Below are positions 2,304-48,366 of a stretch of 64,000 nt of DNA, piece after piece. Within the stretch, counting starts at the first letter, position 1. Each line of letters starts with the position of its first letter. The notes beneath the pieces are model-generated. The model saw only the letters and a program-made list of their open reading frames with translations. It was not told the origin of the DNA and made no database searches. The position numbers and the translations under genes were made by a program. Where the stretch lies: assembly GCA_965178125.1 (NCBI GenBank), contig OZ237763.1:372001-436000 (forward strand), written 5' to 3'. The stretch comes from Bilabrum cf. latius. Taxonomy: Eukaryota.

Positions 2304-5300
2304 TCAGCTTCCAGGCGCAGCAAGCTCCTCCGGCAACACGATCACCCGGGCGGCCTCCTCTGTGCTCCCGCCGACCAGCTCCAAAGCGGGCACGAACGCC
2401 ATGCCGTGCTTTTCCCCTGTGCTTCTGCCCCGACCGAATTCGCAATCAGGATCCACGCCACCACCCGAGGACTTTGCATCGCTGCCTGAAACTAAAGTTC
2501 GACCAGCCAGTCCGCCCACGAGCGCAGCGGCCTTTCCGTCCAGCGATCCATCGGTGGAGTCACGAGAAGTGCCTGCCTTCTCTGCCGCAGCAAGTGCCAC
2601 CACAAGTGGGTCACTCGTCACACCGGATGGTTCACTCGTCACACCTGATAGCCGAATACCATCCGGTGAATTCTGCTTCTCCCCGCCCGCATACCCATCG
2701 CCTTCGCTTTCAAGGCCCCTCCTCACTTCGGCCAGCAGCTGCTCGTCCGTCGGCGGCCAGGACCGCTTGCCGGGCACGCCAGCACCACCCTCCCCAGCAG
2801 TTGCAGCAGCAGCACCACCACCTAAAGCATCGCCAGAGCTGCCCTGCGCCGCCTCCCGCGCCCTGGTGATGCACGTTTCCAGGTCCCTTACCAGGCGGCT
2901 GCCCGTTCCTTTATCTCCCAGGGGGCATTCGAGGGCAGCGGCAACACCTCGGAGGCTACTGACGGTGCTCGGCGAGGCGATGCAGCGCAGGACCGCCTCC
3001 TCCTTCTCGAACTCATCTCTCCTGGAGTTAGGTACCACGCGCTTATGCGAGTCTCTGCTCTTTCTCTTCGCTCTGCGCCTGCCGAACTCCTCCGCGGCGG
3101 AGTGCTGCCTGTGCGTGTACCTCCTATGCGCCTCTGCGGATGTCCTCACCGACCGCCTCCCGAAATCGATGCCCGTCACGTCCTTGGCCGCCATGGTGGA
3201 GAACATGGAGACCTTGGTGGCCTGGCTCTGACGAGACCAGGAAGACGACCCGGAGGCAGCCGATGCCCCACTGGCTCCCGTCACCCCAGACATGCCAGAC
3301 AGCACGGAGCTCACGCCGGTGGCCACAGATCCGGCAATGCTGGAAGAGTCCGTGAAGATGCTCTGGGCGTCGCCGAAGCCCCGTTCTCCGTCGGCTTGCC
3401 GAAGCAGCATGGCGTTGCCAAGCCTCGTGTCCTGCGCGAACCGATACAGGGCCTCAACCTCTGCGTCGCCGAGTCCGGAGGCGTCCTCACCGACCAGCTG
3501 AGGCACGGTTGCTGCCGCGACGCCACGAACGACCTCGGCAGGCTGCGCCTGAGCGGCAGCCGCCAGCAGTGCGGGCATGTCGGTCCCTTCCTCGCCGAAG
3601 CTCTTGTACAGCTCGAAGAGGGTCATGCCGGCCCTGGCCCGCCTCACCGAGGTGACAGCACGCATGGCAGCAGGGAGATTCGCGCTGTCCGATTGCACCT
3701 TCTGCAGCGTGTCTCGGGCGACACGCCGCGCGAGAGGAGCCAGAGCAGTCTCCACAAAGTCTTCTCGACCCGCGTCCTTGGCGACTTGCGCGGCCGCTTG
3801 GAAATCGAAGGCACCGGTGACCTCCACGCCAGAGGTTTCGTCCTCGTCCCCGTCCCCGTCCTCGTCCTCGCCAACGGCTGCAAGGCCGGCAAAGCCACCG
3901 CTGCTGATGCCACCGCCGCCGCCGCCGCCGCTAGTTTGCCTAGAACCGAAATCAATCACTCGGTTCGAGACGGTGGCCAGCAACACACTCGGCGCAGGCG
4001 GCTCACCACCTGCGGCACCGGACGCGGCGCCATCAGCAGCTGATCCTCCCGCCATGGCGCCAAACACACCGCCGGGCCCGTCCTCGCTGCTATCGGAATC
4101 GCTGTCATCTTCCACGCCCCCAGGATCGGCGGACTTCGACTCCAACGCGCCTGGCTCCTTTGACACGTCACAGACAGCATCGGCCACGAAGCCCGCCTTC
4201 TCGCCGTCATCCAAAGCCTGCTCCTCAGCATCGCTGGCTCGCTCCAACCTCCACAAGCAGTGCCGCAGCAAGCCAATAGCGAGAGGATACGCCCCACCGC
4301 ACAGCATGTGGGTCTCATCCTTTGACCCCTCCGTGTCCGCCGCTCGCAGTAGAGAAGCGCCTGGGGGGCGCACCACTGCCCCGCCGCACAGCAGCAGCGC
4401 GCGTTCCTCTACGGCATTTGCTGCCAGCAGCTCCGAGGCCGCAGCTCTGCCACGACCAGCAGAAATCAGCTGTACGCGAGCTTCAGTGGGGGACGCAAAA
4501 TCGCCGAGGCCTTGCTCCTCGAGTGAGCCAGCGGCGGATGCATCAGCAGCACCACCAGCGGCACCTGTCACAACGCCCTGGACACCCTGCGCACTGGCCG
4601 TTGCCGCCAGCACTGACGGTCGCGCTAGTTCCAGGGCATTCGTCCTGTCATCATCTAGCCGCGCGAGCTCGTTGGCCATGCATGTGGGTACAACTTGGCG
4701 GAACGTCTCCCGGTTCGCGTCCTCGCTCGAGATATCGTCAAGCAGCGAGCGGCAGGACGCTACGGCAGCTTCGTCCTCGGGGCAGCATGCGAGTGCGCAA
4801 GCCGCTGCGGCGTGCAGGGGTACCACGCATGACCTGAGCAGCCGAGCCGCCTGGTGGAACTCCGCGGCCACGTCAGCCACATCACCGCTCAGCTCCTCGC
4901 GAGCTGCCTGCAGCCTCTGCTTGGCCGTCCTCCCCGGCATGCTTCCACCCGCGGCTGCGACCATCCTGGCGGCAAGGCCGTCCTTTGTGATGGCTGCAGA
5001 CACCTCTGCGCTCCTTCGGGCTGCCGCCATCTGCAGCAGCTACAGCGCCCACGCGACTCGAAGGGCGTCGTGGGCACGGGGGTGCAGGGCCGGGGATACC
5101 TTACCATTGATCTTCTCAAAGAGGTCCTGCTTGCCGGCGAGGCCACGGAGGAACTTGAGCGGCTGGCTGGCGGCGGCGCTTTCCTCCTCGTCGACGCCGT
5201 CATCTGCGGCGAGCCGTGTCCTCTCAAGGGATAGTGCGGTGGCACCTTCCAGTGCCTTGTGTCCCGTTCGGTACGGGGCTCGAGAGGATGCCAGCCCAAC

Positions 5301-8300
5301 GCAGGTCGCGATCACGTTGTCCCACTGCTTCAGGTGCAGGTCAACAGCGAGCCTCAGCCGTCTGGCTGCTAGCGCTTGGGCGGGAGGTAAGGGATCCACC
5401 CAGCCCGATGCAGGGGACTCCACCGGGGGTGTAGGCACGGCCGATTCCGCGACTGCGTTTAGCCTGCCGACCCGCCGGAGCAACGCGGCGCGAGGGGCCG
5501 GATCCGCGCCGGTGATCTCCTGCACGAGGGCCGCAAGATCGGGGCGGTAAGTGGCCAAAGCTGCATCGCAGAGCGACTGGCTGTGTGCGAGCAGAGCCAG
5601 GTGCCTCAGTGCCTGCTCATGGGACACAATCGGCCTGACCCCAATCCCAACGGCGGCGCGTGCAGCGGACACCACGGCGAGGGCATCGACAAGCTGGGGA
5701 GGGCTGTGCCTAGCATGGGCTGTGAGGAGTGACAGCACCATCTTGCTGCCGCCGCCGGCCTTCGGTCCGAGCACGGAAGGCAGCTCCGCGCGGATGGCGG
5801 CCGCTGCGGCCAGGCACACCACGTTGGCCTTTTCGGCTACCACCGCAGTTCTCTGCAAGAACCCCTGGGGTCGCTCGCCCGGCGGGGGCCTGTACCGCTG
5901 CACAGACACGTCGTCGTCGGCAGCGTTCGCCAGCAGCAGGTCAAGCCTATCATGCGCGTCTGCTCCTAGCTGTCGCACCAAGGCACGGATTCCACTCTCC
6001 TCGGGCAGCGCGTCTAAACTTGCCCGCACCGTGTCCATCGATGGCGCCTCGGCGGGTACGCCTGCCCTGAGAAATGGAGTACCAAGGAAGAACCCGGCTG
6101 GGTCGTAATCCACCAGCAGATTCATGTCTACTCGCTGCGCCCGGCACAGCTCAAGGGCAGCTGCGTATCCCCTCGAGGCGATAAGCCGACGGATGACGCC
6201 AAGCACCAGGGCACGGGGGCGGATCTGCTCCAAATTCCCTCGCGGCATCTGAAGGGTTACCGTGGTGGAGCCCGTGCCGTTAGGCACCGCCACTATCCTG
6301 GCGCCGAGCTCCACGGCACGTCTCAATCCTGCGTCCGAGGCAGCGGCTTCAGCAAGTGCGTGCGACATGGCGGCCTCTGCGGCTGCACTCTGCGTGGCTG
6401 GCACTGCTGCTACTGCTGCTGCTGCTTCAGAAGCGGTCGCGGCAGGAGCGGTCGCGGGTACTTCCGCGGACTCTTTTTCTGCTTCTACCACCATGAGGCG
6501 GAGAGTGTCTCGAGACACCACGCAGAGAGCGGGCTGCGGCGCACCGCCCCCACCAGCCGTGGGATCAGCGTCGATATGGGACCCAAGCAGAGCCGACTGG
6601 TTCACCGGTCCGCCTGACCCGCTCCCTGCGCCTGACGTGGCGGCACCGTCGGTCGATTCGCCTTGCACGGCTGCGGCTGCCAGCTGCATGGCGCCTTCGG
6701 TTTGCACCCGCGCGGCAAGGGCAACGAACAGCACTGCGCGCTGGCCGCCATGCACAGCAACGGATGATGCCGCCGGGCACAGGAGATGCCCGTTTACGTA
6801 CAAACGCTGGGAGCGCGAAGACAGGCCCACAACCTCACCGCAAGACAGTCCGCCCGGAAGCCCTGTGCCAGAGCCAGTCGGACCCTCAGTTGGGATCCAT
6901 ACGATCTCCTCGCACGGCTCTGGGAAGGCAAACAGAGGTGCAGGCACCCCATCAGTGGGACGCACAGCAGCCAGCCGGCTGCTCGAATCCGCTGCGCTTG
7001 TTCCGTCCATGGCGACCAGCAGAGAGGTGGCGCCAGACTCCACGCAGCTGACCTATCCCCCAACTGACTGCAACAGGAGCCTCCTGGCCTCTTCGGCTGA
7101 CGGCGTCACGCTCGGCGCTGACAGGCGGATCATCTCCTGGCCAGCGCGGCCAGCGAGTGACTCGCAGCTAGTGGCCGCAACATGCAGCACTGAGATCGTG
7201 CCGCTGCCGCCATCACCGCTAGCCGGCCCCAGATCCACGCGGACCACCAGCTCCGCGACCGCCTGGTGCTACGCGCTGGCACCGCCAGTGCCGCTCGCCT
7301 GCGCTCTGCAGAGGGCTGCCAGACACAAGTCAAAGGAAGCCTCGCTCCTTACAGCGCTGCCGATCCAGCACAGGTCGTGCGCCGTGACCAAGTCAACGGA
7401 CACTTCGCTGCCCGCAGGGCCAAAGCCGTAGCCGGTCGCAGCGATTGTCTTGCCGTCGCCGAGTCGCACGGCCGCCGATTCTGTGTGGCAGCCCACCGGT
7501 GGACCATGGGCCCTTCCTGCTTTGGCATCTGCGGATCGGGGCGGTCGCAGCCGAGGCGCAACCACAGCGAGCATGCCACCGGAGCAAAGCACTGCAGAGG
7601 CTCCGTCCCCTGAAGCGAGGACAGCCGCCAGCGTCCCGGCTCCTGGCAGAATTAATCTTGCGTCTTGTGCTGTCGCAAGCAAGGGGGCATGCTGCTCATC
7701 TGCAGGCGCCAACGCGATCGACTGCACGGGGGCAGGCAGCCCGAGCGACGCATACGACATGGGCGGTGGCACCAGTGGGCCCGCCGTCGGTGTGAGCAGC
7801 AGCTGCCTATCATCTGACACCACGGTGGTGCCCAACCGCCCGCTGCACACTGCCGCTCCCCACCGGAACCGAAGCTTCTGCACCTGCGCGGGCACGCCGG
7901 GACCCCCGCTCACCAGGACCCACAGTCCCCTTGGGTCTTCCTGATCCCACTCCACCTGCTGCACGAACAGCCCAGGAGAGAACGACGCACCGTCACGCTC
8001 CTGATCCCCGCTGCTGCTACCAGCTGCAGCTGTCTGCCCCCCATCGGTAGCCTCAGCCTGTGGCGATCCAGCACCGCTGCCTGCTGCTGCCGCCTGAGCC
8101 TCTGGCCTCAGGTGCTCGGGCCGCAGCGAGGTCACAGGCAGGACACCACCGTCTCTGTACTGACCCCCTCCGGCTGCAGAGCCCCTCGCCCTGGCAGCTG
8201 CGTCCACCTTGCTCCCGCCACCCACCCCTCCAATCACCCTGACGGCACGCTCCGCTGCAGCGAGGTCCCCATACCTTCTCTCGAACTTGGCGTACCAGTG

Positions 8301-9558
8301 GTAGTTGCCGCGCACCCACACCTGCAGCACGCTCCACTGCGGGATGACGCCCCGGCCAGACCCTGCACCGTTCTACTCACTCGTCACACCAGCGCTCTCC
8401 GTGGGGCCCAGTACCACGCAGAGCGCCTCGCCGCCGCTGCCTCCTCCGGCGCCCCTGCCCCACTGCAGGTGGGTGACGGCCGCGAGCGCGGGGTCAGCGC
8501 ACGGAATCACGAATTCTCCGTGTCTGAGTCCGTTCCTCTCGAACAGGATCACAGAGAGCTGTTCCCGCCGCAGGTCTGCCTGGGATGCGGCGACCAGGGC
8601 TCCGCTGGGGGACCAGCACAACGGCCCCTGCCTCGCCCCCCTTGCTCGTTCCACGCCTGTGCCCGACGGGCAGCTCCTCAAGGGGCCACCCGCGAGCACG
8701 CCCTCCACTGCGCTGCCGTTTTCGTGCCTCCCGATGCCGTGCGGTCGCAGGTCCTGGGTGTAGACGCGGATGCAGGGGCCAGCCAGGTCGCCCGCACCGC
8801 GCTTGGGAGCTAGCGGAGCGGCGGCGCCGGCTTTTTCGAGGATGGCGCCCACATCGGATACTCCAGGCTTTGATTTTCCTTGCGTGTGTGATCCAGCTTC
8901 GGACTGGTCGCACAGGACAGCGAGGTACTGTCCATCGGTTCTCCACGCCATCGAGAGAGAGCTGCTCGCTCGCATTGGCACGGGCTGCGGCATCTCAGCG
9001 AGGGGTTCCCACTCTGAAGTCAAGACAATCATTGCACCCCCAGATTCTGCTACCCCGGTGGATCGAGTCGCGAGCATCATCACTTCTTGGTCCGCGCTGT
9101 GGCTCATTCCAGCGATTCCCTGCGGTGACAAAGCAGCCAGAGCCAGTGGCGCAGGACTAATCAGTGAACACACACAAAGGATCAAATTGATTCTTAGAGC
9201 AACTTGTTCTTACTCCTTCAATTTGACCGACTTCCTCAACCTCTACCGTGCGACAGTCCACGGATACTATCGTTCCGGTGCCAGTTGCACAGAGCACGGC
9301 CTACGCGTCCGTCCAAAACGATGCATGCTCCCAATCAAGGCGCTTTCCATCGCCGCCTGTGGATCCCAATTCAATCTACCAGAGCACTTTCTTTTGAGCG
9401 GGTCTAGCGGCAACAAGAGTGCCGTTCCTGGTCAGGACAAACACAGTCTGCGACAGGTGATCTGTTGCCATGGTGGCAGGCTCCTCGCAAGCCTTGACTC
9501 CAGCTTCATGTTCTTTGAGGACAATGATGTCTTCTCCGCTGAATAAAACGTTCCTCAT
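2304..9558 (-). CDS. ELP1: Elongator complex protein 1 (Elp1/IKAP), about 2386 aa; one intron (9120-9213) and 6 in-frame TAG read as Gln
   Basis: Starts MRNV. Motifs: GIAGMSHSADQE, AWRTDGQYLAV, FERNGLRHGEF, QVWVRGNYHWYAK, VPPPMS, LQMPRGNLEQIRPRALVL, RVDMNLLVD. TAGs at 9376, 9301, 8373, 7269, 7053 and 5040 keep the frame; ends TGA at 2304. Confidence 0.93.
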
Positions 9559-10556: not shown

Positions 10557-11755
10557 TCAGAGCCCCACCACGGCTCCCCCTGCCAGGCACACTCCGGCGG
10601 TCAGCAGCCCGCCCGCCATGACGGACGCAGCCAGCGAGCTCCCGCTGCCTCCTCCGCCACCGTTACAGGTGGAACTGGATCCCTTGTCGTAGGCGGCACG
10701 GTTGCCGTCCAGAATAGTGGCGGAGGCCTCGTTCAAACCGGCGTTCCGAGCGGCGTCCATGGATGGCTGGGGATCGCTGCCCGCGAGGTAGACGTTGCCG
10801 CTCTGCTTGGCAACCACGAACGTGATGTACCCAACGGACTGGCCATTCAGGGTGGCGGATCCAGCCACGAAGATGATGTCGGTGGCTCCCTGTGCGGCGA
10901 TGGCATTGGTGGAGTCCTCCATGGTGATCACGAGGGTGGCATCGCCGTTCGCCGTGACGGTGGATCCCGTGACGCAGTAGGTCGCATCGTTCTCGTTCGA
11001 GTCGTAGTACCCTCTGTAGGCCGAGACGAATCCGCTGGCGCTGCCTGTCCAGGTCACAGTGATGCCATCATCGTCAGCGGAGCCTGGATCATCGTCGGCA
11101 CCGCCTCCCCCGCTGGAAGAGCCTGCGATGGATGATTGAAGGCTTGCCGATTGCGTGCATGTGGGTACAAATGCAATTTAGGGGGTAGAATGTACGGTGA
11201 AGCATGGTTATGCTCGCGCTTAGTAAGACCCGCACCGATTGGATCCGTCCTATTTTCCTAGATCCGATCGAGCGTGTCAGATCCAGTGGCCCGATCCAGC
11301 CTGGCAGAGCTGCCAGGTACAGCTGCTGATTCGGGAGGCTTGAGCCCCGTTTGCTCGACAAACAGCTCAACGCCATTCACCGGATACGTAAATGCATCCA
11401 CGGCCTCAAGCATGATCGACACAGAACACTCCAAAGGGCGCCAAGCCGGCCCACCACTGGCGTCGCCAACGTACGAGGGACCGGTGAATCTACCAGCACT
11501 ACCTCAGCGTTGGAACACAGGGCTCCCCAAGCTAGCGATGCCGTTTGAATGAAATTTATATCAATTCTCACATGATGCACGCCGGGACCCCTGGCAGGAT
11601 CCGTACTGGTTGTTGCAAAGCTGTGCCGTGCAGCTACCGCAGTCCGAGACGTCGGTTGAGCCCTGATCCACGCCGTTGCAGATGCATTCGCAGCTCTCTT
11701 GTGCTTGTGCCGAGAAGGCAAGCACTCCGAAAGTTATGGCGGCGATAGTAAGCAT
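10557..11755 (-). CDS. Secreted, probably GPI-anchored Cys-rich surface protein, paralog A (249 aa, 2 exons; intron 11123-11571)
   Basis: Signal peptide MLTIAAITFGVLAFSAQA and a Cys-rich exon 1. A GTGAGA donor and CGCAG acceptor join the exons in phase (T|GC=Cys). C-terminal small-residue spacer plus hydrophobic tail; ends TGA. Confidence 0.8.
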
Positions 11756-12037
11756 GTTTAGTACCCTGCTTTTGGTGTTTTCCACGAGCCGCGAAGTGTG
11801 TGTGGCTCGGTTTGGTTGGATCTTTATTTCCGGAATCGCAATTGATGGTCGCAACACTTCCTAATCTGCATATCCACACAGTGACGTGCGATTTCCAGAT
11901 GCACAACTCTCGAGTGACCGCAGGATCGGTTCGGCGATCACCAGTCGAGGTGCAGGCCTCAGATTCCCAGGACTAGCATGTCCTCATGTCCTCCAGAGAA
12001 CGCGTCTCCATCAGACCCCCGGGCCCGTCACTCGCTC

Positions 12038-13073
12038 TCAGAGCCCCACCACGGCTCCCCCTGCCAGGCACACTCCGGCGGTCAGCAGCCCGCCCGCCAT
12101 GACGGACGCAGCCAGCGAGCTCCCGCTGCCTCCTCCACCGGCACTGTTACAGGTGGAACTGGATCCCTTGTTGAAGGCAGCGCGACCGCCGTCGAGAAGA
12201 GAGGAAAACGCCTCCTGCACACCCGTCTCGCGTGCATCTGCCAGGCTCGTCTTCGCATTGCCACTGGCCAAGTAGGTGTTTCCAATCTCCTTGGCTGACA
12301 CGAAGGTGAGAAATCCGATGGACTATCCGTTGATGGTAGCGGGTCCCACCACAAAGATGATGTCGGAGGTGGCACCCGAGCTGATGGCCCTCGTGGAATC
12401 CTGCAGGTCGAACACCAGCGTGCCCAACTCGATCTGCCCGGTCACAGTGCTCCCAGTGATGCAGTAGGTCTCATCAATCTCGCTTGAGACCCAGTAGCCC
12501 TAGAACGCCGAGACGTACTCGCTGGGGCTTCCAGTCCACGTCACGGTAAAGCCGCTTTCGTCATCGTCACCGCTGGAGCCACCCCCTCCTGACGAGCCTG
12601 AGGTAAGAAGACAAAGGATGCGTCGCAGTGCACGCCCACGTGAAAACTTATGTGCGTGCTAATGTTTATGAATACGAAAGCCAAATAAATGAGTAATCGA
12701 GGAGCAGCCTTGCATCACCCCTTATTGGATCTGATCGAGCGAGGCTGCTCCGATCCGCCGATCTTGCAATGATCGGATCTTCGATCTGATACGTAGGACC
12801 AGATCGAAGCGTGTGAATGCGCGGTTCCAACTACAGCGTCGCAGGGCAAGCCCAAGGGGAGGATTCTCGTAGCATTTATCAATTCTCACATGATGCACGC
12901 TGAGATCCTTGGCAGGATCCAAACTCGCTGGTGCACAGGTCCGATGTGCAGCTGCCGCAGTCCGAGACATCGACCGAGCCCTGGTCCTGGCTGTTGCAGG
13001 TGCATTTGCAGCTCTCCTGTGCTAGTGCCGAGAAGGCAAGCACTCCGAAAGTTAAAGCGGCGATGGTGAGCAT
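12038..13073 (-). CDS. Secreted, probably GPI-anchored Cys-rich surface protein, paralog B (247 aa; intron 12598-12889; 2 TAG=Gln)
   Basis: Same exon structure as paralog A (184-nt exon 1). TAG at 12323-12325 aligns with CAG of paralog A; second TAG at 12500-12502. 3' end nearly identical to A. Confidence 0.8.
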
Positions 13074-13596
13074 TTGATAGTACCAATGGCTGTTTTTATG
13101 GTTGCAGGAAATGAGCTGAGCACAACGGCACACCGCGGAGTGATCCCGTCCGGAGTCGCAATCTTGATCGCTGGATCGGATCTTGCTGATACCAGCAGGC
13201 GCGGCGGATCTTGCACGATGCACTTTGAGATTCCTTGGTTAGAAGCAGCCTCCTGCTTCTTTTTTGTACGTCTTCTGCCATGGTCGAGTCGGCGCCTCAT
13301 CGCCGTTTCAGTGTGCTCCTCGGCTGTTGGCTCTCCTTCTCTCGTCGTACTGAATCGACGGGCAGTTTTCCGTTTTGTCCGTTACAAGCGCATAATATGG
13401 ATTGATAGTAAAGCACTGTTTACTCCTGTTGGTGATTCGGCACTCTTTTGCAATCGCTCAGCAAGGGAGCCGTAATACTGTGCTCGACAAAAAGAGTCGT
13501 GGAGTTGTACGAATGTACAGCAAGCAATGCCCGGGTGCGCAGCAAGCACTACATGAGAATGTAATGTGTAGCTAAGAAGACCTGCATTGGGGTAGA

Positions 13597-14695
13597 TCAA
13601 GCGTGAATGGCAACAAGCAGGCCTCCAACCAGAATAGCAATCGTTGCGTGCCAATCACTGGCAGCACGACGTGACCCATCGCCTCGATCACCAAACTCTA
13701 CAGTCGATTGTACATAAGATAATTTGCTGTATGATGCCCTGTTGGTGTCTAGCAGCTGTCTGAACGCCTCAACGTGGCCAGCAGCTTTCGCCTCCTTCTC
13801 GGACACGGTGGGCTGGCTCGTCGCCGCGAAGACAAGCCCTCCTTCCGTTGCAGATACAATGCACATGAATCCAATCAATTGTCCGTTAAGCAGCGCTGGC
13901 CCAACAGCAAATGTAACTCTCTTTGTGTAGCCGATGTCGATGGGAGTTGCTGAGTCGCTGATTTCAATCGAAAGCGACGCCCCACCAAGCAGAGTGCCAG
14001 TCCAGTACCCCCTTGAAACGCAGAATGGCTCACTATTGTCGCGAGAGGCGTAGCATCCGGGGTAGGCAGCAACATAGGAGTCCGGGCTGCTGGTCCATTC
14101 GATGGCCGGCGGGTTGTCTGCATTTGTTCCGGCGTTGCCTAGCGGCGCCTCATTCGGGTGGTCGACGCGGCGATTCGCCTCGTCTGCATGCAAAAGCTAG
14201 ATCATGACAGTGTGTGCTATTTACTATGCTGGATGCTTCGAAGGCGGGCGTGATGGCGATGCGAAGCTGCTGGGTTGTGCGTGTCGACAGCGCGATTTGG
14301 ACACCTTCCGTCTCAGCGCCACCGGAGCGGCGATAGATTCGAATCATCGGCGAACCAGTAGTTTCTTGCAATAACATATAAAGGACATGATCATCAATGT
14401 CATGGGATGAGCTTGTGTCAGTGCTCCGCGCATTCATAGGCCATAGTTCTGCGCTTCGGCCGACCCCACCGGGCCTACCAGTAGCTGCAATCAAGCCCTA
14501 CAGTCATGTAAACATTGACGAGTACACTCACCTACGATATAAGTAGTCTTTCTGGAAGGAGCAGCGGGCTTGGCCTCCGCGACGGCCTGATTTCTGGTAG
14601 CGTGCCCTTCCCGAGGCGCGGTCGCTGCACTGGCCGGACGCTGCTGGCAGAACCCAACAAGAATAACAAGAATAACATGCAATGCACAAGCCATG
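13597..14695 (-). CDS. Divergent third paralog of the surface protein family (exon structure partly unresolved)
   Basis: WTSSPDSYVAAYPG...FCV...FAVGPALLNGQLIGFM...LLDTNRASY aligns with paralogs A and B; hydrophobic C-terminus. An upstream signal-peptide exon (MACALHVILVILVGF) has a GTGAGT donor near 14530. Confidence 0.55.
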
Positions 14696-14893: not shown

Positions 14894-16202
14894 TCAGCGG
14901 GCCGCATTTTCCCACCCAGGCAGGGCTGCCATCCCGAGCGACTCCCTTGCCTCCCATAGCTCATCCTTGAGCTCGACACCCCAACCGGGGCCCGAGGGGA
15001 ATGCCACGCTTCCGTTGCGCAGATCAAAGGAGTACTTCTTGAAGATGTCCACGCTGGGAGCGCCATTGTCCACGCAGTTGAACTCCATCACGTCGGCAGC
15101 CGCAGTTGTGCTGTGCAGCAGGTGCATCGTGACTATGTTGTTCATCCCTGGCTACGGGGAGTGGGGCTCCACGGTGATGCCACCTACGTTCTCTGCATAC
15201 CTAGCCACGTCCAGCATCTGAGAGAATCCTCCAGAGTAGCCTGCGTCTGGCTGCACGAATGTCACTGCCTTTGTTCTCATGGCATACTTGAATAGGAAGG
15301 GGCGGTACTCCTGCTCGCCGGCTGCCACAGGTATGACCCCCATGGAGTTCAGCTTTTCGTCTTCGTCGTACAGCCAAAATACCACCGGCTCTTCAAAGAA
15401 ATGGAAATTGTTCTTGGCTATCAGCTTGGCTGTGGGCAGCGCGTGCTCCGCTGTCGTGTAGGCTCCATTGGCGTCGGCCATGAGCCGCGCCTGCGGCACC
15501 GCAGCTCGCACGGCCTCTACTACCTCCTCCGTGCGATTGGGCCACTAGTCTGTGTTGTTGCCCATCCGCTTCCCCACCTTGATCTTGAACGTGTCGATGC
15601 CGTACTTGCTCGCCGCCTCTGAGACCTTCTTGGCCAGCTGCTCGCCCGTGAGAGTTCTCGACAGGCTCGAGCCGTACACCCTCATGCGCCCGTTGGAAGG
15701 AACACTACCACCGGCCAGTTCCGCCACGGGCTTCCCCGCTCTCTTGCCAGCAAGATCCCAGAGAGCTTGGTCCAATCCGGCGATGGAGCGACTGAGCATC
15801 GCACCCGTTGTCTTGTAAAGCTCGTTCGGGTGCTGACTGTACGTTCTGAGATAATCCTACACGTACGGTGGATACGTTGGATCAACTCCGAGTGCGGCAG
15901 GCGCGATCGCCTGCTGGAAAAACTGAGCGATGTCGGCGGATTCGTTGTTCGTATCGCCGTACGAGGCTTGACCAAAGCCTGATAGGCCATCATCCGACCA
16001 CACTTGCACGTATGGTCTCTGCAATGCAGAATAAAGCGATAAATGCGCGATTTATTGTGAACACTGGAATGCAGATCCGACGATTGCTTGCAGCACGTGT
16101 GCCAGACTGCCTCACACCCTCCACTAAGAAAGACTCTAGCTTTGTTATCTTCAAGGCAGAAACATATGACAAGCAAGCAAGCATTCCAATGGTACCGTGC
16201 AT
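14894..16202 (-). CDS. Mandelate racemase/muconate lactonizing enzyme (enolase superfamily) protein, about 403 aa; intron 16019-16115; 3 TAG=Gln
   Basis: IAGLDQALWDLAGK, KIKVG, LMADANG, FFEEP, AAGEQ, VQPD and EPH motifs. TAGs at 15857, 15545 and 15152 are in frame; ends TGA. Confidence 0.88.
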
Positions 16203-16245
16203 GGTGCGACGTTCTGGTGCTGCGCTTGCGCTTGTAGTTGCACTT

Positions 16246-19274: not shown

Positions 19275-19473
19275 CGCCAACTATGCAAGCGCTCCGACTT
19301 GGCGGGTGTGGGGCGGAAGTGTGAATCGGGGGATTTGTCAGCTCGGGGTTGCCGAGCGTATCTCTGAATCCAGACAAAAGTCTGGGTACATAAAACTGAA
19401 CGAATTAGTCGTTGTAGAACTACAAGCATAAAACAATCAGGCCTTCGCCCTGTACCTCCCGATCGTCATAGAG

Positions 19474-22128: not shown

Positions 22129-25100
22129 TCACTGCGCACTCAGCGCCATGTAGTTCGTCCTCGCCCTGCTCCTCAGGCCCTCAGCAGCGTCGCCCGTTGC
22201 GTCCACCATGGACGCAAAGATGCGCTCTCTCTGCTTTCCGCCCGCGCTGGAGCCAGCGCCCCCTTCCTCCTCCTGGGCATCGTGCCCCCCAGCTGCTGCA
22301 GCACCTTGGGACGACACGCCCTGCTGCTCCTCCCCCTGAAGAAGCTCCCACGGATGCCCAAACTCGCCGACCACGCCATCGTCCATCACCAGGATCTTGT
22401 CCGACCCGATGACCGTGTGCAGCCTGTGCGCGATGGTCAGGATGGTCGCCCGCTTGAAATCCTCGGACACTACCTGGTGCACGAGAGCGTCGGCCTCCTG
22501 GTCCAGCGAGGCGCTGGCCTCGTCAAGGCAAAGCACGCGCACGTCGTCGGCGCGCAGCAGCACGCGGCACAGGCAGATGAGAGCGCGCTGCCCCACGCTA
22601 AAGTTCTCGCCGCTCTCCGACACGGGAGCATCCAGCGCCCTGTCGCCCTTCTCCTTGAGCAGCTCCTCCCGCTGTTCCCTGTACTCCACCACGTCGAGCT
22701 CGCCGAAGCGCATGCAGGACGACCATCCGCCCGCGGCACCGCTCGCCACCATGGCCCTGTAGGCCTCCTCCACGGAGGCGGCCGCACCGCTGGCCACGAA
22801 GCCGGCGGCTGCCTGCTCGGCAATCGCGGCGATCTCTGCCTTACGCTGGGCCACGGCCTGCCCCACGGCCACTGCTTCGGCAACGCTGTCCACCTTCCCG
22901 TCGGGGCGCGCATCGGCGGCCACCTTCTCAAGGTCGAGGGGCTCCAGCCCCGCCGCCTCTGACGCCTCGTCCATGTCCACCAGGCCCAGCCTCAGCCGTG
23001 CCTGCACTCGAGCCTGCACTGGACCCATGCCCGCGCCCTCCAGCTCCAGCACCTTGTGCTGGTAGGATCCCCCGGCCTCTGCAGCAGCCGCTTCCTCGCT
23101 CCTCGCGTTCACGAACAGTTTGGCTTCGAGGGAGGACACGGCATCGAACCGCCGGTGGAAGCGGTCGTGCAGCAGCCTGCGCACCGAGGGGCTGGTCACC
23201 GACGCGGCCGCCGACGCACCGCCCGCGGCGCCGTCCTTGGACAGCCTCGCTGCCGCGATGGTGGCATCCCTGTCAAACTTGTCGCGGGCCTCCACGAGGG
23301 CGTCCACGTCGAACCCCGAGGGCAGCTCGAAGGTCCCCTCCAGGTCCTTGGACAAGAACTCGGTCCACCGCTTCTTGATCTCGTCCTCGAGCTTGACCCT
23401 CCGCAATGCCTTCCACATGGCCGCCTCCGCCCCCTCGTCCCCCAGCTTGCCCCTGATCTCGCGGACGGGGTCCAGGTTGTCGCGCACCGTGCCGATGAAC
23501 AGCGTCGGCTCCTGCGGGATGATCGCCAACCGCCTGCGCAGCTGGCCGAGTCCCATCGAATCGACGTCCCTGCCGTCGATCACGATGCTGCCTTCCTTGC
23601 ACTTGGTCTCAACGATCCTGAAGAGGGCAGCCAGCAGGCTGGATTTGCCGGAGCCCGTCCTGCCCACCACGCCGCACGTCTCTCCGGCCTTGAGCGAGAA
23701 ATTCACGCCATGCAGTACCTCCGGCGTGTTGTCGCGGTATCTCATCTTGTACCCCTTGAAGGCCACCTCGCCCTTGCTGGGCCACGAGTCGGGCAGGTCA
23801 GGGTCGTCCTGGGATACTTCCTGCGGGGTCTGCTCCGTCACGCCCATGATCCTCTCGGCGCTGTTCATCTGGTTCTCAACCTCCGCGGCCATGCGCGTGG
23901 TCCAGTTGAGGATGCCGGTGAGGGACATGGAGTAGGTCAGCGCGAAGCCGGCGAGGCCGGCGATGCCTCCGCGGCTCTAGTACTGCGCGCTGACGATCGA
24001 GAGGACTGCAGACACGGCCACGATGAGGTTGCCCATGGTCTCTAGACGGATGGACAGCCACCTGTCGATGGCCCTCTGGGTGTACCACGCCGAGATGTTG
24101 TTTGCCACCAGGCTCTCGTTCCGCATCGCGAAGGGCTGCGCCTTGCCGAAAGCGCGGATGGTGCTGAGGCCGCCGAGCGTCTCTCCAAAGAAGGCGTAGA
24201 TGGGTCCCCTGCTCACGCCCTCGGTCCTCTTGATCTCCCTGCTGGCGTTGCGGAAGTAGCTCATGGCGAAGAAGTAGACGGCCAAGATCGGCACCATCGC
24301 CACACCGAACCAAGGCGTGGCGAACACGATTGCACCCAGAGATCCAATAACTGCGAACAACTTGAAAGAAAATGGGAATCACGAGCGTGGTGAGACTTGG
24401 CGTTGTTTTTGGGGGGCCCATATGACGTGCCAAATAGCGGGCGTGCAGCCAAACGAATGCTAGCAATGAAGGCAGCAGACGAGTCCATAGCCAGACGAAA
24501 CTCACCCAGGAAGATCATGAATGTGAACATGCCGAGGGTCTCCCCGAGCTTGATGTCCACGTCGAAGAGGTCCTTTGAGAAGCGGCTGAGGATGCGCCCC
24601 GAGGGCACAGTGTCGTGGACCGACATGGGCGCCGAGAGCACGGTCTTGTACAGCGCGTCGTGCAGCTTCCTAGAGGCAGCGATGCCCTGCCAAACGAATA
24701 GAATCAGGCGCCCGCCGTTAAGGATAGACTGGAGCACGCCCAGCGCGGCTAGGATGCCCATGTAGAAGCCGAGGCTGTAGTCGCCATCCTCGCTGGTGTT
24801 GCTCCAGAACGCGATCCACCACTGGTTTGCCAATGAGGCGAACTGGGCGAGACCGGTGGACGTCAGCAGGCCGAACGCCATGAGCATCCAGCAGTTGCTC
24901 GTCTGCAGGTACCCGATGTAGTACTTGAGCTGGACCGCGCCCTCCTCCCGGCCCTCGGCGCCGTACTGCTGCCCGGCCTGGTCCGAGGTACCCAGCTGGT
25001 TGGTGCCACTGCTTGCGGTGGCAGGAGTCTTGCCGGCGGCTGCAGGCGAGGGGCGAACCACGGATCCGGACTTGGATGTGAGGACACCCTTGGCCGCCTT

Positions 25101-28100
25101 CTTGAGGTCGGCGCTGCTGGATGCCTTGAGCGACAGCTGCGACATCTTGGCGCGGAAGCCAGCAGACCTCGCCTTTCGGTCCTCCTCGGCGCGGCCCACC
25201 GCCTCCTGCTGGGCCTCACTGACGGGCTCGGCCACATTGAACCCGTCCCTCCACCGCACCTGCACTCCGCCCGAGGCAGGGATCACCAGAGCCACCGCGC
25301 CGTCCTCCTGGCCGACAGCCAGCGACACAGCCACGGCAGAGGCGTCCGCATCAGTGCTGTCCGAGTTCTTGCCCTCGTCCTCCTCCTTCTCCTCCTCGCT
25401 CCTGCTGCCGTCCTCCTCCTGCTTGCCCTCCTCCTTTCCGGCCTCGTCATCGTCATGCGAGTCCCTCGCGGCCTGCTTGTACTGCTCCACCTTGCCCGCG
25501 AACTCGGGGTCCTGCATGAGTGCCTCGAAGGTGCCTGCTTTGACGATCCGCCCGATGCCGTCAGGGCCCTTCTCCAGCACCGCCACGCCGTCGCACTTGC
25601 TCAGCACGTGCACCTGGTGCGTGACCAGGAGGCGGGTCCTGCCGTGCATCGCATCGCGGATGCATCCCGAGAAGAGTTGCTCGGCCACGGCGGGGTCCGT
25701 CGCGGACAGCGGGTCATCTAGAGCCACCACAGAGGCGCGCGAGTAGGCGGCGCGCGCGAGTGCGACCCTCTGCTTCTGTCCCCCGCTGAGGTTCAGCCCC
25801 CTCTCCCCGATCTCAACGAGGTCGCCCTTGTCGAAGATTGCGATGTCATGGCTCAGCTGGCATGCCTCGATCACGGCGGCGTACCGCTCGGCGTCATAGG
25901 GCATACCGAACAAGATGTTGTCACGGAGGGTAGCGTTCTGAATCCACGCCGTCTGCGCCACGTAGGCCATGTCCCCGCCTACCTCCACCTGCCCGGACCC
26001 CTTGAAGAGCTCTCCCAGCACGGCAGAGCACAGGGCACTCTTACCGCTGCCCACGGGGCCGATGACGGCCCACAGCTCCCCCTTAGGGATCTCGAGGTTG
26101 ATGCCTCCCAGCACGGGCGGGACGGAGGCGGAGGCGGCCACGGCCTTCTGGGCCGCTGCCTGGGCCTTCTGCACGTCGGAAGTACCTGCCCGTGCGACAG
26201 GGGTGGGAGTGGGCATGCCACCCGCGGATGCGTCGGAGGCGAGCCTCGCCCGGTCGATCTTGATGGGGGGCGGGACACCGCCGGGGGCGCCGCCAGCTGC
26301 AGTGGCTGCGACGGCCGCGTCGGCGCTGGTGGGTGCGGGCATGGGGCCTAGGTTGGGCGTGTTCTCTGCGGTTGAATCGGCCCTAGGCTTGCTTCCGTCG
26401 GCTGGCACCGCAGCAGATTCAGAAGCGCCGCCGGCCGCAGCGCCCTTGTCCTTCTAGCTCTTCTTTCCGGCCGTCTTGTTCTTCTTCTTGTTCGACTTCT
26501 TGACCTCCACGATGGGCTTGAGCTGGCGCGCAGGATCGTGCCAGTAAAAGGTTCCATCGTTCACGCGGATACCGAGAGCGTCACCGCCGCCGGCACCCGA
26601 GGAGGCTCCTTTTTTGGCCGGTCCGTCCGAGGTCCCGTTCTTGTTCTTCTTGCTGCCGCCCGCGCCATTGTCGATGGCGAGGTAGTCGTCAATCTCCAGG
26701 CCCTGCATGAACAGCTCCACGCGGTTCAGGGAATCGGTCGCGCTGGATACCTCGCTGAGCACGCGGGGGTAGAACATGAGCGGGAAGCGCAGCAGCAGGA
26801 GGATGTTCACTGCGGTGAACACGGTAGAGCTCCTGAACGTGTCGCTAACGCTCGCGTAGGTGATGAGCGTAAACACGGCGATGATGGCCGGCGCGGTGGC
26901 GAGGAGGACCCACGCGCCCACCCCCAGCTTCGCAGCAGCCTCGATGTCCTTGAGCTCCTTTTTACGAGCCTCGCTGACCATGGACATGAAGGACTCCTCC
27001 CAGTTGTAGTACTTGATCGCCTTGATGGACGCGATGCTCTCGTTGGTCAGCTTGACGCGGCTGTCACGGAGCTTGCTCACGCGGGCCCGAATGATCATCA
27101 TGCCGATAAAGAAGCACATGTTGATGGGCACAAGAACGATGCACACGCCGAGCCCCACCATGGCGGGGCCCCAGCCAATGTAGAAAACAAGCAGCCCAAT
27201 GTAACCGAGCATCTGGTAGATGCCATCCCAGATCACGTGGATCTGCAGCATCACAGTGTCGAGCTTCTCGGCGTCTACTTGCATGAGATTCACGATCTTC
27301 CCGACAGAGGTGCCCTGGCGGGCCGCAGGAGACAGCCGCAGCGCCTTGCGGTAGATGGCAGCGGTGAGGCCGGTCCGAACCCTGTAGCCGACGCGAACCA
27401 TCTCGTGGAAGTACTGCGGGCCCAATACAAGTTTACACTTTGAAATTCAAGCGGGTAGATTGGGTATGGAAGCGCATAGATCTAGCCGAGGGTGCACACA
27501 GCTCCCAGCAGTGTATATCCGCATCGGGGAAAGCGCAAGGAAACGCAGCTACAGCCCCCTTGCGAGGGGCAGGTAGCTCAAAATCGCCAACAAGATACTA
27601 TTTCATAACAATGATGACTAAAATGCGGCCTTACCCTATTTTCGGCGAGAGTTTTAAGCGAGAGGGCGAGCAGAATCGCACCTACCCAGACATAGCCGTA
27701 CCAATCCTCAACATCCTCGTCCGAGTCTCCGCTGTACGCTTCAATAGACTCGAGAAGAAAGTTAAGAAAGATGGGCGGCAGGAACTGCAGCGTTGAGTTC
27801 ATGAGCTTCAGAAATCCGGCGTAAATGAATCGGGTGCCCATGATCTCCCTAATCGCGGACTGCACCGGGTGGTCATTCTTCGCGTTCTTTGCATCCATAA
27901 AAGACTTTTCGAACAATTTAGATACCTTTCCTGGCTTGTCATCCTCGGTAACTGGGAACATGTCGTCGTCACCGAGGCGCTTGTAGCCTTGGGTGCCGTC
28001 GGGGCGCGTCACGGTCGTGTTTGCCAACTGCATGATCTCCCCGACCCAGTAGAACACAAGGTGTGAGCAACAGCTTGCTTCATCCTCCAGGGACTGCGAA

Positions 28101-28642: not shown

Positions 28643-30055
28643 ATGAAGAGAAGCCGATCAGCCATGGCAGCTTCAGGATCTGGAGCTGGAGAGTCGCCGA
28701 AACGACGCCGTGGGATGAAAGACGGACCTTCAGGGAAATCCACAGAAATCAAGACTGAAACTCTTGGTCTCGGATTCGAAGAGCGTGCTTGGCGCGATGG
28801 GCACTCCGTTGTAGCAGGTGTCGATGAGGCTGGTCGTGGTCCGCTGGCTGGCCCTGTGGTTGCAGCAGCCGTAAGTATACTGCGCAGCAGCAGCTTGGCC
28901 GGGGAGTCGGACTTAGATCCGCCTGTACCAGGTGTCAGGGATAGCAAGCTGATCACGGATGAGAGCGAGCGGGAGCGTCTCTACGAGCAATTGATCGCTC
29001 ACCCGAGGATTCGATGGGGCGTGGCGGCCGTAGACCCGCGTGGGATCGAGAAGATTAACATTCTCTAGGCAGCCATGCGATCGATGGAGCTGTCTTGCCT
29101 TGATATGGCCGGTAGGTTCGAGCCGAGCGAGGCAGACGCAGCAGAGTCATCTGCTTCTGCAGCGGCAGCAGCCGCCGCTTCCTTGCCTCTTGGAGTTTAC
29201 CCGTCCTACGTATTCGTAGATGGAAACCGCATGCCGAAGCGATTCAAGGCCATGGCCGAGTGTGCTGCTGCCAGGGAACAAGGAGAAGGCGTCGGCGTCG
29301 CGGCTTCTGCTGCTGCTCCGTCTGCCCCGGCATCTAAGGCCAAAAGCAAGGGCAAGGGCAAGGGCAAGAAAATCGTCGGGCCGCCAGAACCCACAGCTCC
29401 CGCTGCCGAGTACGCTGACGGTGTGGGAGCGGGGCACAGCGCGAGGGCACTGAAAATGGGGTGGGAGCAGCTCGAGCTAGATCGGGCGCAACGGGCTTCC
29501 GGTGCTGCTGCCTCCGGCGAGGAGCTGCTGGAGCCCGCACAGGCAGTTGCTCTGCCGGCTGGTCGCAAGACAGCTCTGCTGGCAGGGCCGCCCGCCGGCT
29601 TCACTGCCGAGATGGTGATCAAGGGGGACAGCAAGGTGTATTGCATTGCGGCAGCCTCCGTGATCGCCAAGGTGACCCGAGATCGGATCATGCGCCTGAT
29701 AGACCGGAAGTATCCCCAGTACGACCTGGCCCAGCACAAGGGGTATCCCACCCCTGCCCACAAGGGGGCCGTGGTGCGGCTGGGCCCCTCCCCTGTGCAT
29801 CGCTTCTGCTTTGCGCCCATCAAAGGGAACTTTCTGTGGGTGCCAGAGGAGGGGCGGGAGGGTGCGGACAGTAAGTGCTGGGTTAGGCTTGGTGCCAGCA
29901 AGGCCAAGAAGACGAATGGCAAGGGCAAGACGTCTGCCAAGCCGGCTGCCGCTGCTGGTGGCGCGGCGTCCGGGGCGGGAGCGGCAGAGGTGGCAGCACC
30001 GCCTTCGTCGAGAGCGGCACGAGCAGCTCGGAGGGCTGCCACGAAAGGTACTTGA
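28643..30055 (+). CDS. rnhB: Ribonuclease HII, bacterial-type (470 aa; TAG 29066-29068 = Gln)
   Basis: [26 protein letters not shown][TAG]AAM, VDG, KGDSK...[19 protein letters not shown] and HR motifs; ends TGA. Confidence 0.92.
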
Positions 30056-34710: not shown

Positions 34711-37700
34711 TTATAAGATGGACAACTTATTTTCACCAACTTCTGCGTCGATCGATCCAGAATGCTCACCACCAGGCATTTCCAGAATGTCCGCAGGTCT
34801 CAGGTCGTACTCAACGAATCCTGCTGGTACGGCACTCAAGGTCTACAGCACACCTTTACTGGCGGAATTACCATCAAGTACAGTAGTGAGTGAGCGATGC
34901 AGGCTACCCAACACTGCAGACTGGTATGCGTGCTTGCCAACGTATTTGTTGGGCATGTGCCACACGGTGCCGGCGCCGTAGCCTGGCGAGCCCGGCCTCG
35001 ACCATCCAGCGTCCACCACCTTTGTAAACCCGCATGCAAAGTACGGCTCTCCCTCCGCCAACTCGATAGGCGGGTATGCCCAGTGTCTTGCGCGCCACGG
35101 TATCGGTGACATGCAGCCCGCGTGCGAGGCCATGTATCGCAGCATGTAGGATGGGAGAATGAAGCCTGCCTGATGCACGTTGACAGGAGCGTGAAGCAGA
35201 ACGTCTGGACCACAACCACGATCTTGAAGTCTTTTCGGCAAATTTCCTGTGCCAGACCACGGGTTTTTGTAGTTCTAGTTCATCTCTGTTATACAGCCTT
35301 CACGCTGCCGGTAGATTGGCCAGCCGTCGTTCAGCTCAGGGCAGCCGTTCACCAACCTCCTCTCCTTCTGCCTGGTTGCCTATGAGGCCTCTAAATATGG
35401 ATTAAGTTTTTCGTATTGCAGTAGACCGGGAACCATGAGCCTTGGTAGTCGAGGCCTGTTCCACGACTGCCCATCGGCGGTTGTGTCCATCCAAGCCGCG
35501 AGTTCCGGGCGCACCCAGTCTGCGTGGACTCGCCCGAGCACGTGCAGCAAATGTTCAAATCGAAGCAAGTGGTCCTCCTCGTACATTGCGATGACGTCAT
35601 AATCAACAGCCCGTGTGTCTGCAGAGCCGGCTGTGCTTGTCTCGTGTTGCAGAGAGGAGGATGCAGCCGCGACCACATACTGCGACCGGACATACCACGG
35701 AAACGATACGCCCAGAGATGCCGGGGCAGGTGCAATCGCCAGAGACAGTGAGATGCCTTTCGATGACCGAGCACGGTCCCAAAATGGCTGCCTTGCCGCC
35801 CAGCAGACTAGGTGCGCCCCTGCTTCCTGTGCGCTCCTCGCGCTCGTAGGCAATGTATCGTTGCTGTTCTATTGGCAGCGACCCCACGCATCCTCTACAA
35901 ATTCGGTGTATATCCCCAGTGCCTGAGAACTATTCGCAGCTTTGCTACCCCAGCAAGAGGCGGATCTCCACGCCTAGTCGCACCGCGCTTGCTTGTGACC
36001 CTGACGATTTGTGCCTATGCTTGCATTGCTGCACAGCGAAGTGTCACTTAGTGATGCGCCAGCAGCCACACGGATATCAAGTGCCACAGCAACACCGTGC
36101 CGCCTTGAGAAAGTCTCGGCCGTAGTAGAGAGCGACTGCACCACTCGCTTGGCCCAATGCGACCTGGATACCAAGTCATGCGAAAGCAACACGACCAGGG
36201 CACGGATGGTGGGGGTGTGCTTCTCCACTACTTGGACACTGTCAGTGGAGCCTGAAGGGGCAGGCATTGCGTCCACTTGCTCCTCCTTCCGTATTGCTCG
36301 AGGCGATGCATGAAGCTGGAGGTCTTCGCCTCGTGCGCTCATCTGCAGCCGCCATTCACTGTGTGGATCCAGCGGGTGAATCTTAATGTGGTCCATAGAC
36401 AGTCGAATCGAATTAGTGTCTATGACCGGGCCATCACCTCCGCTTGTAGCCGCTCGCACGCAAGTAATTGGTCGTTGCTTGTGATCCCGCGACTGGGAGC
36501 TCCGCTCCAAACCAAGTTCTTCCAGGCTCGGGATGGGCGGCTGCCATCTGGGCATGTTCTACCGCGTCAAATCTCTATGAGTTAGGATGGCTTGCGGGTC
36601 ACCAACCCACCACTCTTTCCGAAGCAGCCGGCCCATCGAGTCGTCATTACCAGAGCCACCAATTGCTGCATCTTGCTTCCCGAACTGCACGTGAAGATCC
36701 TCAGCGCCCGACTTCGGCGTGCTTACTGCAAACGTGCTAGCAATGGCACCTCTCACGTGGCCTGCACAGCGCACGTGCCGGTCAGCTGGGAAGCGGAATG
36801 GGGTAGAGGACACCTCGCCATGCAGCTTGTGCAGAGTCCTGGCGGTGGCGGCCATGCAGTCATCCAGTGTCATCGACTAGCCAGCATCATCCACTCCATT
36901 TTGAGCGTCGATTACTGCTCGCATTAAAAAAGCTGCCATTTCCTAGCTGCTCAGGTTGGAAAAATCGAAATTTGGAGTACCGACTGCTTGTCTCACTGCG
37001 TCCACCACGCAGCACGCAGCCGAGTCGGCAATCGCACTGATCCTACGCATCTTTCCGACGAACGCATTCGCAGCTGCGATCTTTATGCATACAGCATCTT
37101 CATCTGAGCTTGGCATATCGATCGACTGTGCGATGGTATTACCAACTTGAGCTGCTCCGAAAGAGTTGTCGAAGAGCCCCGGAGGCAGCGCATAGGCAGA
37201 GACCGACGGCTCTGACACGGATGGGGGGCCCGTCCATCTCTAGAGGCCCGTGCTAGAGTCGATGTGCTGGGTGTACGTGGCAGCTGGTAAGCGGCGCCGC
37301 AGAGCATGCAGGGCAAGCACAAAGTCGCAGGCTCGCGCTATCCCGGAAGGAGCAGGATCTGCTGCTGCTGCTGCTGATGTCGTTGACTTGGAGCACCACT
37401 GCACGAGGGTGTCCCAGGCGGCGTCAGTGTTACCCGGGCTAGCCATGCCTGCAGACCTGCGTGGTTGCGTCAGATAATTTAAGCTCCGACGACTCTAAAA
37501 ACCGCCTGGGCTGCAATGTGTAGTCGTACTGCCAGCGGTGCAGTTGGCCTGTGCCGGACCCATGGCCGTGCCGCCCCCCAGGTCTGACAAGATCTCAACA
37601 TGGGATCGGAGGACTTCAGCCGCTCTCCGTTGCAGCCTACGACTCGCATGATACCGGATTTCCTTTCGCAAGCTCATGCTGGCACCCGCACTGCCTGGTG

Positions 37701-47987: not shown

Positions 47988-48259
<272 letters not shown>

Positions 48260-48366
48260 GGGGGGGTTATAGGTCGGTGTAATTGGGTAGTGTGTGCTTT
48301 GATTCTCTCTCTCAAAGTACGGAGGCTCTCCAAGGATGCAGAATAATTGCCTTAAACCCGTTTGAT

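Follow-up and report, generated by a model that had tools for sequence, protein, structure and literature searches.

In-frame TAG codons, read most probably as glutamine, in a GC-rich, intron-bearing stretch of eukaryotic DNA with TGA as its usual stop

Three neighboring paralogous genes on the minus strand of contig OZ237763.1, here called paralogs A, B, and C, raise the question of whether TAG, a stop in the standard code, is read as an amino acid in the genome that holds them and, if so, as which one. The genes lie in a stretch of 64,000 nucleotides (positions 372,001 to 436,000 of the contig; hereafter the window, whose own numbering is used throughout), which has a GC content of about 60% across its length and which we read as nuclear DNA of a eukaryote with spliceosomal introns. 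A first-pass annotation of the window had noticed that a motif shared by the three genes is written with CAG in A, TAG in B, and CAA in C, and had proposed that TAG is a synonymous glutamine codon. The reading that we prefer, with a probability of roughly 0.6, is that UAG is a sense codon, most probably for glutamine, that UGA is the usual terminator, and that UAA probably remains a stop, i.e., a code of the type of NCBI translation table 15.

The pattern that prompted this proposal is borne out by a codon check and by the alignment of the paralogs: the CAG of A (10839-10841), the TAG of B (12323-12325), and the CAA of C (13879-13881), all on the minus strand, occupy one aligned column within the motif A-T/L-L/I-N-G-[Q/TAG]-S/L-V/I-G, and TAG 12323 faces Q in both of the other paralogs. 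Paralog B holds a second TAG that had gone unmentioned (12500-12502), which lies opposite arginine in A and proline in C. A and B are identical over approximately their last 50 residues, and all three genes appear to share one layout, in which a hydrophobic N terminus and a Cys-rich exon are followed by a Gly/Ser/Asp linker, then by a domain of some 130 residues, and lastly by a hydrophobic tail at the C terminus. Judging from their spliced translations, they appear to encode small surface proteins, which might be secreted and carry a GPI anchor. They match no Pfam family, and a word-based protein search with paralog A was empty in the length range searched, so the family may still have relatives. 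An AlphaFold2 model of paralog A, built from a 3-row alignment, was unusable, with a mean predicted local distance difference test (pLDDT) score of 42.

An untranscribed paralog B had been named as a finding that would refute the proposal. Instead, contigs from two runs, labeled X6 and X7, whose RNA-like kind is guessed, skip the GT..AG stretch at 12598-12889 on the gene strand, as they do those at 9119-9212, 16019-16115, and 17524-17613, while contigs from runs X1 and X5 are unspliced where they cover these four introns. The joint in paralog B (12596>12889, cut +1) has a depth of 47 in X6 and 106 in X7 and is absent from X1 and X5. The spliced contigs of B, which run over 11823-12596 plus 12889-13099 in X6 and over 11835-12596 plus 12889-13084 in X7, contain 0 differing letters, and therefore both TAGs of B are present in them; the spliced frame comprises 247 codons from the ATG at 13073 to the TGA at 12038. 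Paralog B is thus very probably transcribed and spliced. The same holds for TAGs in other genes: an X7 contig of the ELP1 gene (3939-9118 plus 9213-9486) keeps four TAGs, and spliced contigs of a gene of the mandelate racemase/enolase family keep three, in both cases with 0 differing letters.

Beyond the paralogs, TAG is spread through the genes of the window. Once it is dropped as a stop, the longest open frame grows from 911 to 2301 codons, whereas it stays at 911 when TAA is dropped in its place. In 20 coding stretches with a total of 11,536 codons—cut from frames open under TGA-only stops, of which the portions backed by homology, paralogy, or RNA-like contigs were kept—there are 47 TAGs in frame, with no TAA and no TGA; off frame, the same stretches hold 131 TAGs, 68 TAAs, and 404 TGAs among 23,032 triplets. 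TAG makes up about 0.4% of the codons and about 11% of all glutamine-type codons. The frame runs unbroken through TAG in conserved blocks, namely, in membrane domain 2 of an ABCC transporter, in the RNase HII motif, at three sites of the enolase-family enzyme, in the first transmembrane span (TM1) of P2X-like proteins, and in the sulfatase exon that holds C-x-P-S-R. Moreover, both P2X-like paralogs carry TAG in one and the same column just past the second membrane span (50087-50089 and 60232-60234; K-A-L-Y-x-TAG-Y-K/R), where, to judge from the alignment, it is kept since the duplication. None of the genes of the window could be seen to end at TAG, and TAGs are distributed over gene bodies including their 3' parts; in the EamA and RNase HII genes, the coding score is already low ahead of the frame-closing TGA, which may therefore not mark their true ends. 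The TAG at 43319, in a kinesin gene, was considered as an intron acceptor, which is unlikely in view of the coding-like GC content at third codon positions (GC3) of the 40-codon insertion ahead of it and the absence of a GT[AG]AG donor there. A simple screen of the window by GC3 minus GC2 was too noisy to be of use. From the in-frame pattern, TAG is almost certainly a sense codon that stands within nearly every gene of the window.

Which amino acid it specifies can be judged from the residues that it faces in related proteins, for which the true glutamine codons of the same genes serve as a calibrated control. The control consists of 22 pairwise alignments at 32 to 79% identity, in which all residues were considered; the comparators are paralogs from within the window, 3 of the 13 hits of a gene of no known family (hereafter the unnamed gene), 5 of the 120 hits of the enolase-family gene, and 2 of the 80 sulfatase loci, and together they yield 36 TAG pairs at 21 sites. 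CAG and CAA face Q in 40 of 156 pairs (26%), and TAG does so in 11 of 36 (31%), with Q having a background share of 3.2% among the comparator residues. The remaining residues opposite TAG are E (5 pairs), N (4), R (3), D, L, and Y (2 each), and seven others (one each). That most of the residues opposite TAG are not Q is therefore also what true glutamine codons show at these divergences. At least one comparator has Q at 8 of the 21 sites. When each of the 21 sites was scored once, with substitution frequencies taken from the same alignments, the site-weighted log-likelihood was -80.7 bits for Gln, -93.0 for Glu, -93.8 for Lys, and -94.1 for Asn; no other residue thus comes closer to Gln than about 12 bits, and Gln comes out best in all 21 leave-one-site-out runs, with Ser eighth, Leu lower, and Tyr outside the best eight. 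These results agree with the first-pass proposal that TAG behaves like a glutamine codon, facing Q as often as CAG and CAA do, and we consider it very likely that glutamine is its main meaning.

Individual sites show the same mixture. The TAG at 58916-58918 in P2X-like gene 2 lies opposite the CAA at 48505-48507 in P2X-like gene 1, as had been described, and three solved P2X receptors likewise have Q in that place. At TAG 48550, the best solved P2X hit has Q and two others have N and E, and the further P2X TAGs that had not been mentioned before are paired with M, E/P, K, N, and R. The codons of a parallel that the first-pass annotation had drawn between neighboring repeats of the FG-GAP gene are also as described: TAG 54632-54634 follows VVLL, and CAA 54860-54862 follows ATLL 76 residues further on. 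An alignment of propeller to propeller puts Asp opposite TAG 54632, and it pairs TAG 54920 with Asn and TAG 56357 with Gln. In the unnamed gene, TAG 35974 faces Q in P0001, within an otherwise identical stretch of 11 residues. P0001 is a database fragment of 206 residues, 79% identical to the unnamed gene, that terminates exactly at the position of TAG 35869-35871; from this match it appears to stem from gene calling under the standard code in a close relative with the same code as the window. TAG 15152 of the enolase-family gene faces N in 91 of 120 homologs and Q in 12 of 120, with three of the Q cases having the same PHSP context, and TAG 29066 of the RNase HII gene faces H or N in solved homologs. 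For ELP1 and the tail of the KIF9-type kinesin, alignments with solved structures leave the TAG sites uncovered or place them opposite Val in a weak coiled-coil alignment.

How such a code might have come about can be outlined by analogy with described cases. TAG codons would arise from CAG through a single C-to-T change and would be kept as a minor third glutamine codon. A tRNA-Gln with its anticodon altered from CUG to CUA would decode UAG alone (by analogy with PMC2984419 and PMC11687900), and an eRF1 that had lost recognition of UAG would have kept that of UAA and UGA.

Several observations weigh against the reading of UAG as glutamine with UAA as a stop. No tRNA gene was found in a tRNA scan of the window, an Rfam scan gave no match, and the eRF1 gene likewise lies outside these 64 kb. 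Runs X6 and X7 are RNA by guess, since no run is recorded as RNA and X7 is marked "probably DNA." The 20 coding stretches were delimited by ourselves, which makes the count of zero TAA partly a matter of construction where homology or RNA-like cover does not reach, and the case for TAA as a stop consists of three candidate gene ends called by coding score only. The comparators of the control, too, were of our choosing, and apart from paralog A only one of them exceeds 65% identity. No comparator has Q at 13 of the 21 TAG sites, and when BLOSUM scores are simply summed over 17 sites, a cruder measure, Asn (15.8) is not far behind Gln (20.7), with Glu at 6.4. At the level of single sites, TAG 15545 stands opposite E in 88 of 120 homologs, and its counterpart is V in each of the four closest eukaryote-like relatives; TAG 58868 faces M/I/I; and, as the one strong conflict, the sulfatase TAG 38955 falls into a column that is Tyr in 77 of 80 bacterial loci and His in 2 (with no motif match in 1), in which no Gln was seen, and that is Y, F, and Y in solved sulfatases. 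This last site may hint at decoding that is not strictly as glutamine, for example, by near-cognate tRNAs. In yeast, near-cognate readthrough of UAG inserts Gln, Tyr, and Lys. One alternative is that TAG, though a sense codon, does not stand for glutamine alone, being read by near-cognate tRNAs as mostly Gln and sometimes Tyr, or else as Asn, Glu, or Lys. Besides the near-invariant sulfatase tyrosine, this alternative could appeal to TAG 48637, for which the best solved P2X hit has Tyr, and to the second place of Asn in the BLOSUM sum. It is nevertheless improbable, given the advantage of about 12 bits that Gln has over Glu, Lys, and Asn, while Tyr ranks below eighth place and scores negative at 14 of the 17 sites of the BLOSUM sum. 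Since true glutamine codons also face Tyr, in 2 of 156 pairs, the single tyrosine site is unusual rather than disqualifying, and a single mismatch in 21 sites does not exceed the noise reported for accepted cases of UAG as Gln (PMC11687900). For the standard code, with the TAGs as nonsense mutations in pseudogenes or as assembly or sequencing errors, there is no support other than that stop codons are present at all, and we regard it as extremely improbable. Only TAG occurs in frame, without frameshifts and in stretches whose other frames contain TGA three times as often as TAG; contigs from three studies are letter-identical over the paralog region, and genes of the window are spliced in the RNA-like contigs. 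Taken together, the TAG-only in-frame pattern, the conserved blocks, and the column shared by the two P2X-like genes exclude pseudogenes and sequencing errors as an explanation.

The remaining alternative concerns TAA, which would also encode glutamine if the window followed NCBI table 6, as ulvophycean green algae do, with TGA as the sole stop; TAA would then be rare because of GC-rich third positions and the sample of 64 kb. This alternative, which we hold to be unlikely, draws on the fact that TGA closes every gene with a reasonably clear end (at least 13, including A, B, C, ELP1, the enolase-family gene, ABCC, KIF9, and FG-GAP) and that the candidate TAA ends are calls by coding score. Among solved structures, the KIF9-type kinesin is best matched by entry 7n61, a kinesin-like protein that is presumably from Chlamydomonas. 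Ulvophyceae in which TAA and TAG (TAR) encode Gln were seen to have only TGA stops and use TAG more than TAA (PMC2984419). What speaks for TAA being different from TAG is its absence from the coding stretches. CAA accounts for 75 of the 390 CAA plus CAG (CAR) codons (19%), and a proportional use of TAA would predict about 9 among 47, where none is seen (P = 4e-5, from a small sample). In the unnamed gene, which has a low codon bias, TAG:TAA is 10:0 although CAA:CAG is 15:20. Frames delimited by TGA do hold 16 TAAs, of which 2 lie in spliced-out introns (9210 and 16052), 2 are the first codon of the listing, 7 are in 5' flanks free of homology, and 5 stand at or after the three candidate gene ends (32143; 34711 and 34699; 19474 and 19405); past the TAA at 32143, the coding score falls from 0.23 to -0.34. 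From this small sample, we think it likely that TAA is not a glutamine codon as well, and TAA probably still terminates translation.

Codes in which UAG alone has become glutamine are known from Iotanema spirale (PMC5304391) and from Hartmannula sinica, Trochilia petrani, and Protocruzia tuzeti (PMC11687900). The window has in common with these organisms that UAG is most probably glutamine and UAA probably not reassigned, that TAG is widespread inside genes, and that conserved glutamines account for a majority but not for all of the internal UAGs; in ciliates with an accepted UAG=Gln code, the share is 58 to 70% (PMC11687900). These organisms are ciliates or an anaerobic fornicate, with UAA as the preferred stop (PMC5304391, PMC11687900). 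In contrast, TGA closes at least 13 genes of the window and TAA at most 3, the GC content is about 60%, and the introns are of the GT..AG type with 90 to 450 nucleotides. Table 6 is described for the ulvophyte groups Dasycladales, Cladophorales, and Trentepohliales and for Blastophysa, with TGA as the only stop seen (PMC2984419). The window resembles them in having TAG at conserved glutamines, TGA as a stop, TAG more common than TAA, and introns, and in coming from an organism capable of forming flagella, as its KIF9-type kinesin indicates, which does not imply green-algal membership. It differs from them in lacking an in-frame TAA in the coding stretches, although CAA is well represented. Other UAG-only codes comprise the rhizarian exLh, with UAG as Leu (PMC5304391), and Scotinosphaera, with UAG as Ser (as cited in PMC11687900). 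In these nuclear genomes, as probably in the window, UAG and UAA have come apart in meaning, but the amino acid differs. Giant viruses that read TAG as Gln, with TAA and TGA as stops, have the same apparent code (PMC13524828), while the window is cellular by its ELP1, kinesin, and ABCC genes and its spliced introns. Scans of viral contigs gave two weak matches for the domain of the unnamed gene (36% over 47 residues) and none for paralog A, and hence no link to a virus. Our literature search turned up no GC-rich non-ciliate with UAG-only Gln beyond the cases above, a negative of little weight.

A system in which UAG means glutamine and UAA means something else is thus of a known kind, if a rare one, and the instance in the window may be new; for a UAG-only glutamine code, it is unusual that the main stop is TGA and not TAA. 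It is tempting to speculate, though only tentatively, that the window comes from an undescribed GC-rich, intron-bearing, flagellum-capable lineage, neither ciliate nor fornicate, in which a code of the table 15 type arose independently with UGA as the main terminator, and which would be a candidate for the kind of host used by giant viruses with TAG as Gln. Were this true, it would add an independent origin of the code, with an unusual terminator, and provide a cellular counterpart for the viruses that share it, whereas an ulvophyte-type table 6 code would make the window an already known case. Nuclear code changes are rare, and split meanings of UAG and UAA are rarer still; they bear on the decoupling of release factor and tRNA. 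In practical terms, gene callers that use the standard code would fragment nearly every gene of this organism, and its annotation needs TAG as Gln. The fragmentary database proteins P0001 to P0003 look like standard-code fragments of that sort.

The features of the window on which the analysis draws are collected in Table 1. Its other genes encode a rhodanese/UPF0176 protein, the EamA transporter, an ankyrin protein, and an EGF/lectin-like protein.

Table 1. Genes, exons, introns, and TAG codons of the window (window numbering)
Feature	Position	Strand	Remarks
ELP1, gene body	2307..9118	-	Pfam ELP1 domains, TAG list, X7 contig; ends at TGA
ELP1, in-frame TAGs	8373, 7269, 7053, 5040	-	
ELP1, intron	9119-9212	-	contains the gene's only in-frame TAA (9210)
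Paralog A, exon 2	10557..11122	-	TGA stop 10557-10559; CAG 10839-10841 in NGQ motif; boundary placed by analogy with B
Paralog A, putative intron	11123-11571	-	donor and acceptor words as in B; joined frame open over 249 residues
Paralog A, exon 1 (putative)	11572..11755	-	ATG 11755; hydrophobic N terminus and Cys-rich part
Paralog B, exon 2	12038..12597	-	TGA stop 12038-12040; TAGs 12323-12325 and 12500-12502
Paralog B, intron	12598..12889	-	292 nucleotides, GT..AG
Paralog B, exon 1	12890..13073	-	ATG 13073; spliced frame of 247 residues with two TAGs and TGA end
Paralog C, conserved part	13597..14130	-	TGA stop 13597-13599; CAA 13879-13881
Mandelate racemase/enolase-family gene	14897..16018	-	TAGs 15857, 15545, 15152; TGA end
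Enolase-family gene, intron	16019-16115	-	contains in-frame TAA 16052; spliced in X6 and X7 contigs
ABCC transporter	22132..27446	-	TAG 23977 in membrane domain 2; TAG 26454 in linker
RNase HII gene	28790..30052	+	TAG 29066 within conserved I-N-I-L-x-A motif
Unnamed gene (no known family)	34714..37800	-	10 in-frame TAGs; candidate stop TAA 34711
Sulfatase, exon	38925..39146	+	TAG 38955-38957, six residues ahead of the catalytic Cys of C-x-P-S-R
KIF9-type kinesin	40880..43729	-	TAGs 43319 (end of 40-codon high-GC3 insertion) and 41459
P2X-like gene 1	48364..50683	+	exons 48364-49398 and 49871-50683
P2X-like gene 1, TAGs	48550, 48637, 50087, one further in tail	+	CAA at 48505
FG-GAP, integrin-alpha-like gene	54047..58519	+	TAGs 54632, 54920, 55961, 56357; CAA 54860
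P2X-like gene 2	58796..61209	+	exons 58796-59779 and 59959-61209
P2X-like gene 2, TAGs	58868, 58916, 59342, 59483, 60232, 60367, 60670, 60757	+	

The enolase-family gene (14897-16115) and the sulfatase gene (38640-40683) have bacterial proteins as their closest homologs, yet both carry spliceosomal introns and in-frame TAGs; the named bacterial matches are of the Rhodobacterales type and from Planctomycetota, Acidobacteriota, and Verrucomicrobiota. By these matches, the two genes look like old transfers into the eukaryote. Eukaryote-like relatives are represented by two metagenome contigs (L001 and L002; GC 0.69) with an intron-split enolase-family gene that is 51 to 57% identical. The high-GC3 frames of these two contigs contain no in-frame TAG or TAA, and the code change may not reach this relative.

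The two P2X-like genes score 23.5, 22.0, 22.3, and 20.0 bits against the Pfam family P2X_receptor, whose gathering cutoff is 27. Their best match among solved structures is entry 5f1c ("Putative uncharacterized protein"; E 7.6e-5, TM1 only), which we take to be a P2X receptor, and matches to named P2X purinoceptors start at E 0.0096. A word-based protein search with P2X-like gene 2 gave no match in the length range searched, and here, too, the family may still have relatives. Upstream of P2X-like gene 1 lies a perfect (GAGCAG)n tract of about 46 units (~47980-48260), which corresponds to (Glu-Gln)n; its open frame stops at the TAA at 48280, and the tract itself holds no TAG.

Further along, the segment 51388-52433 is duplicated at 52430-53200, with protein identities of 87 to 100%, and the duplicated segment takes in the C-terminal part of a leucine-rich-repeat/ankyrin-like frame. 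Finally, the summed contig depth over 16009-17342 and 18677-19343 is very high in all four runs, reaching up to 2664 (compared with about 23 elsewhere in X1), and the many loose contig ends and long-range joints in these two segments point to repeated or low-complexity elements.

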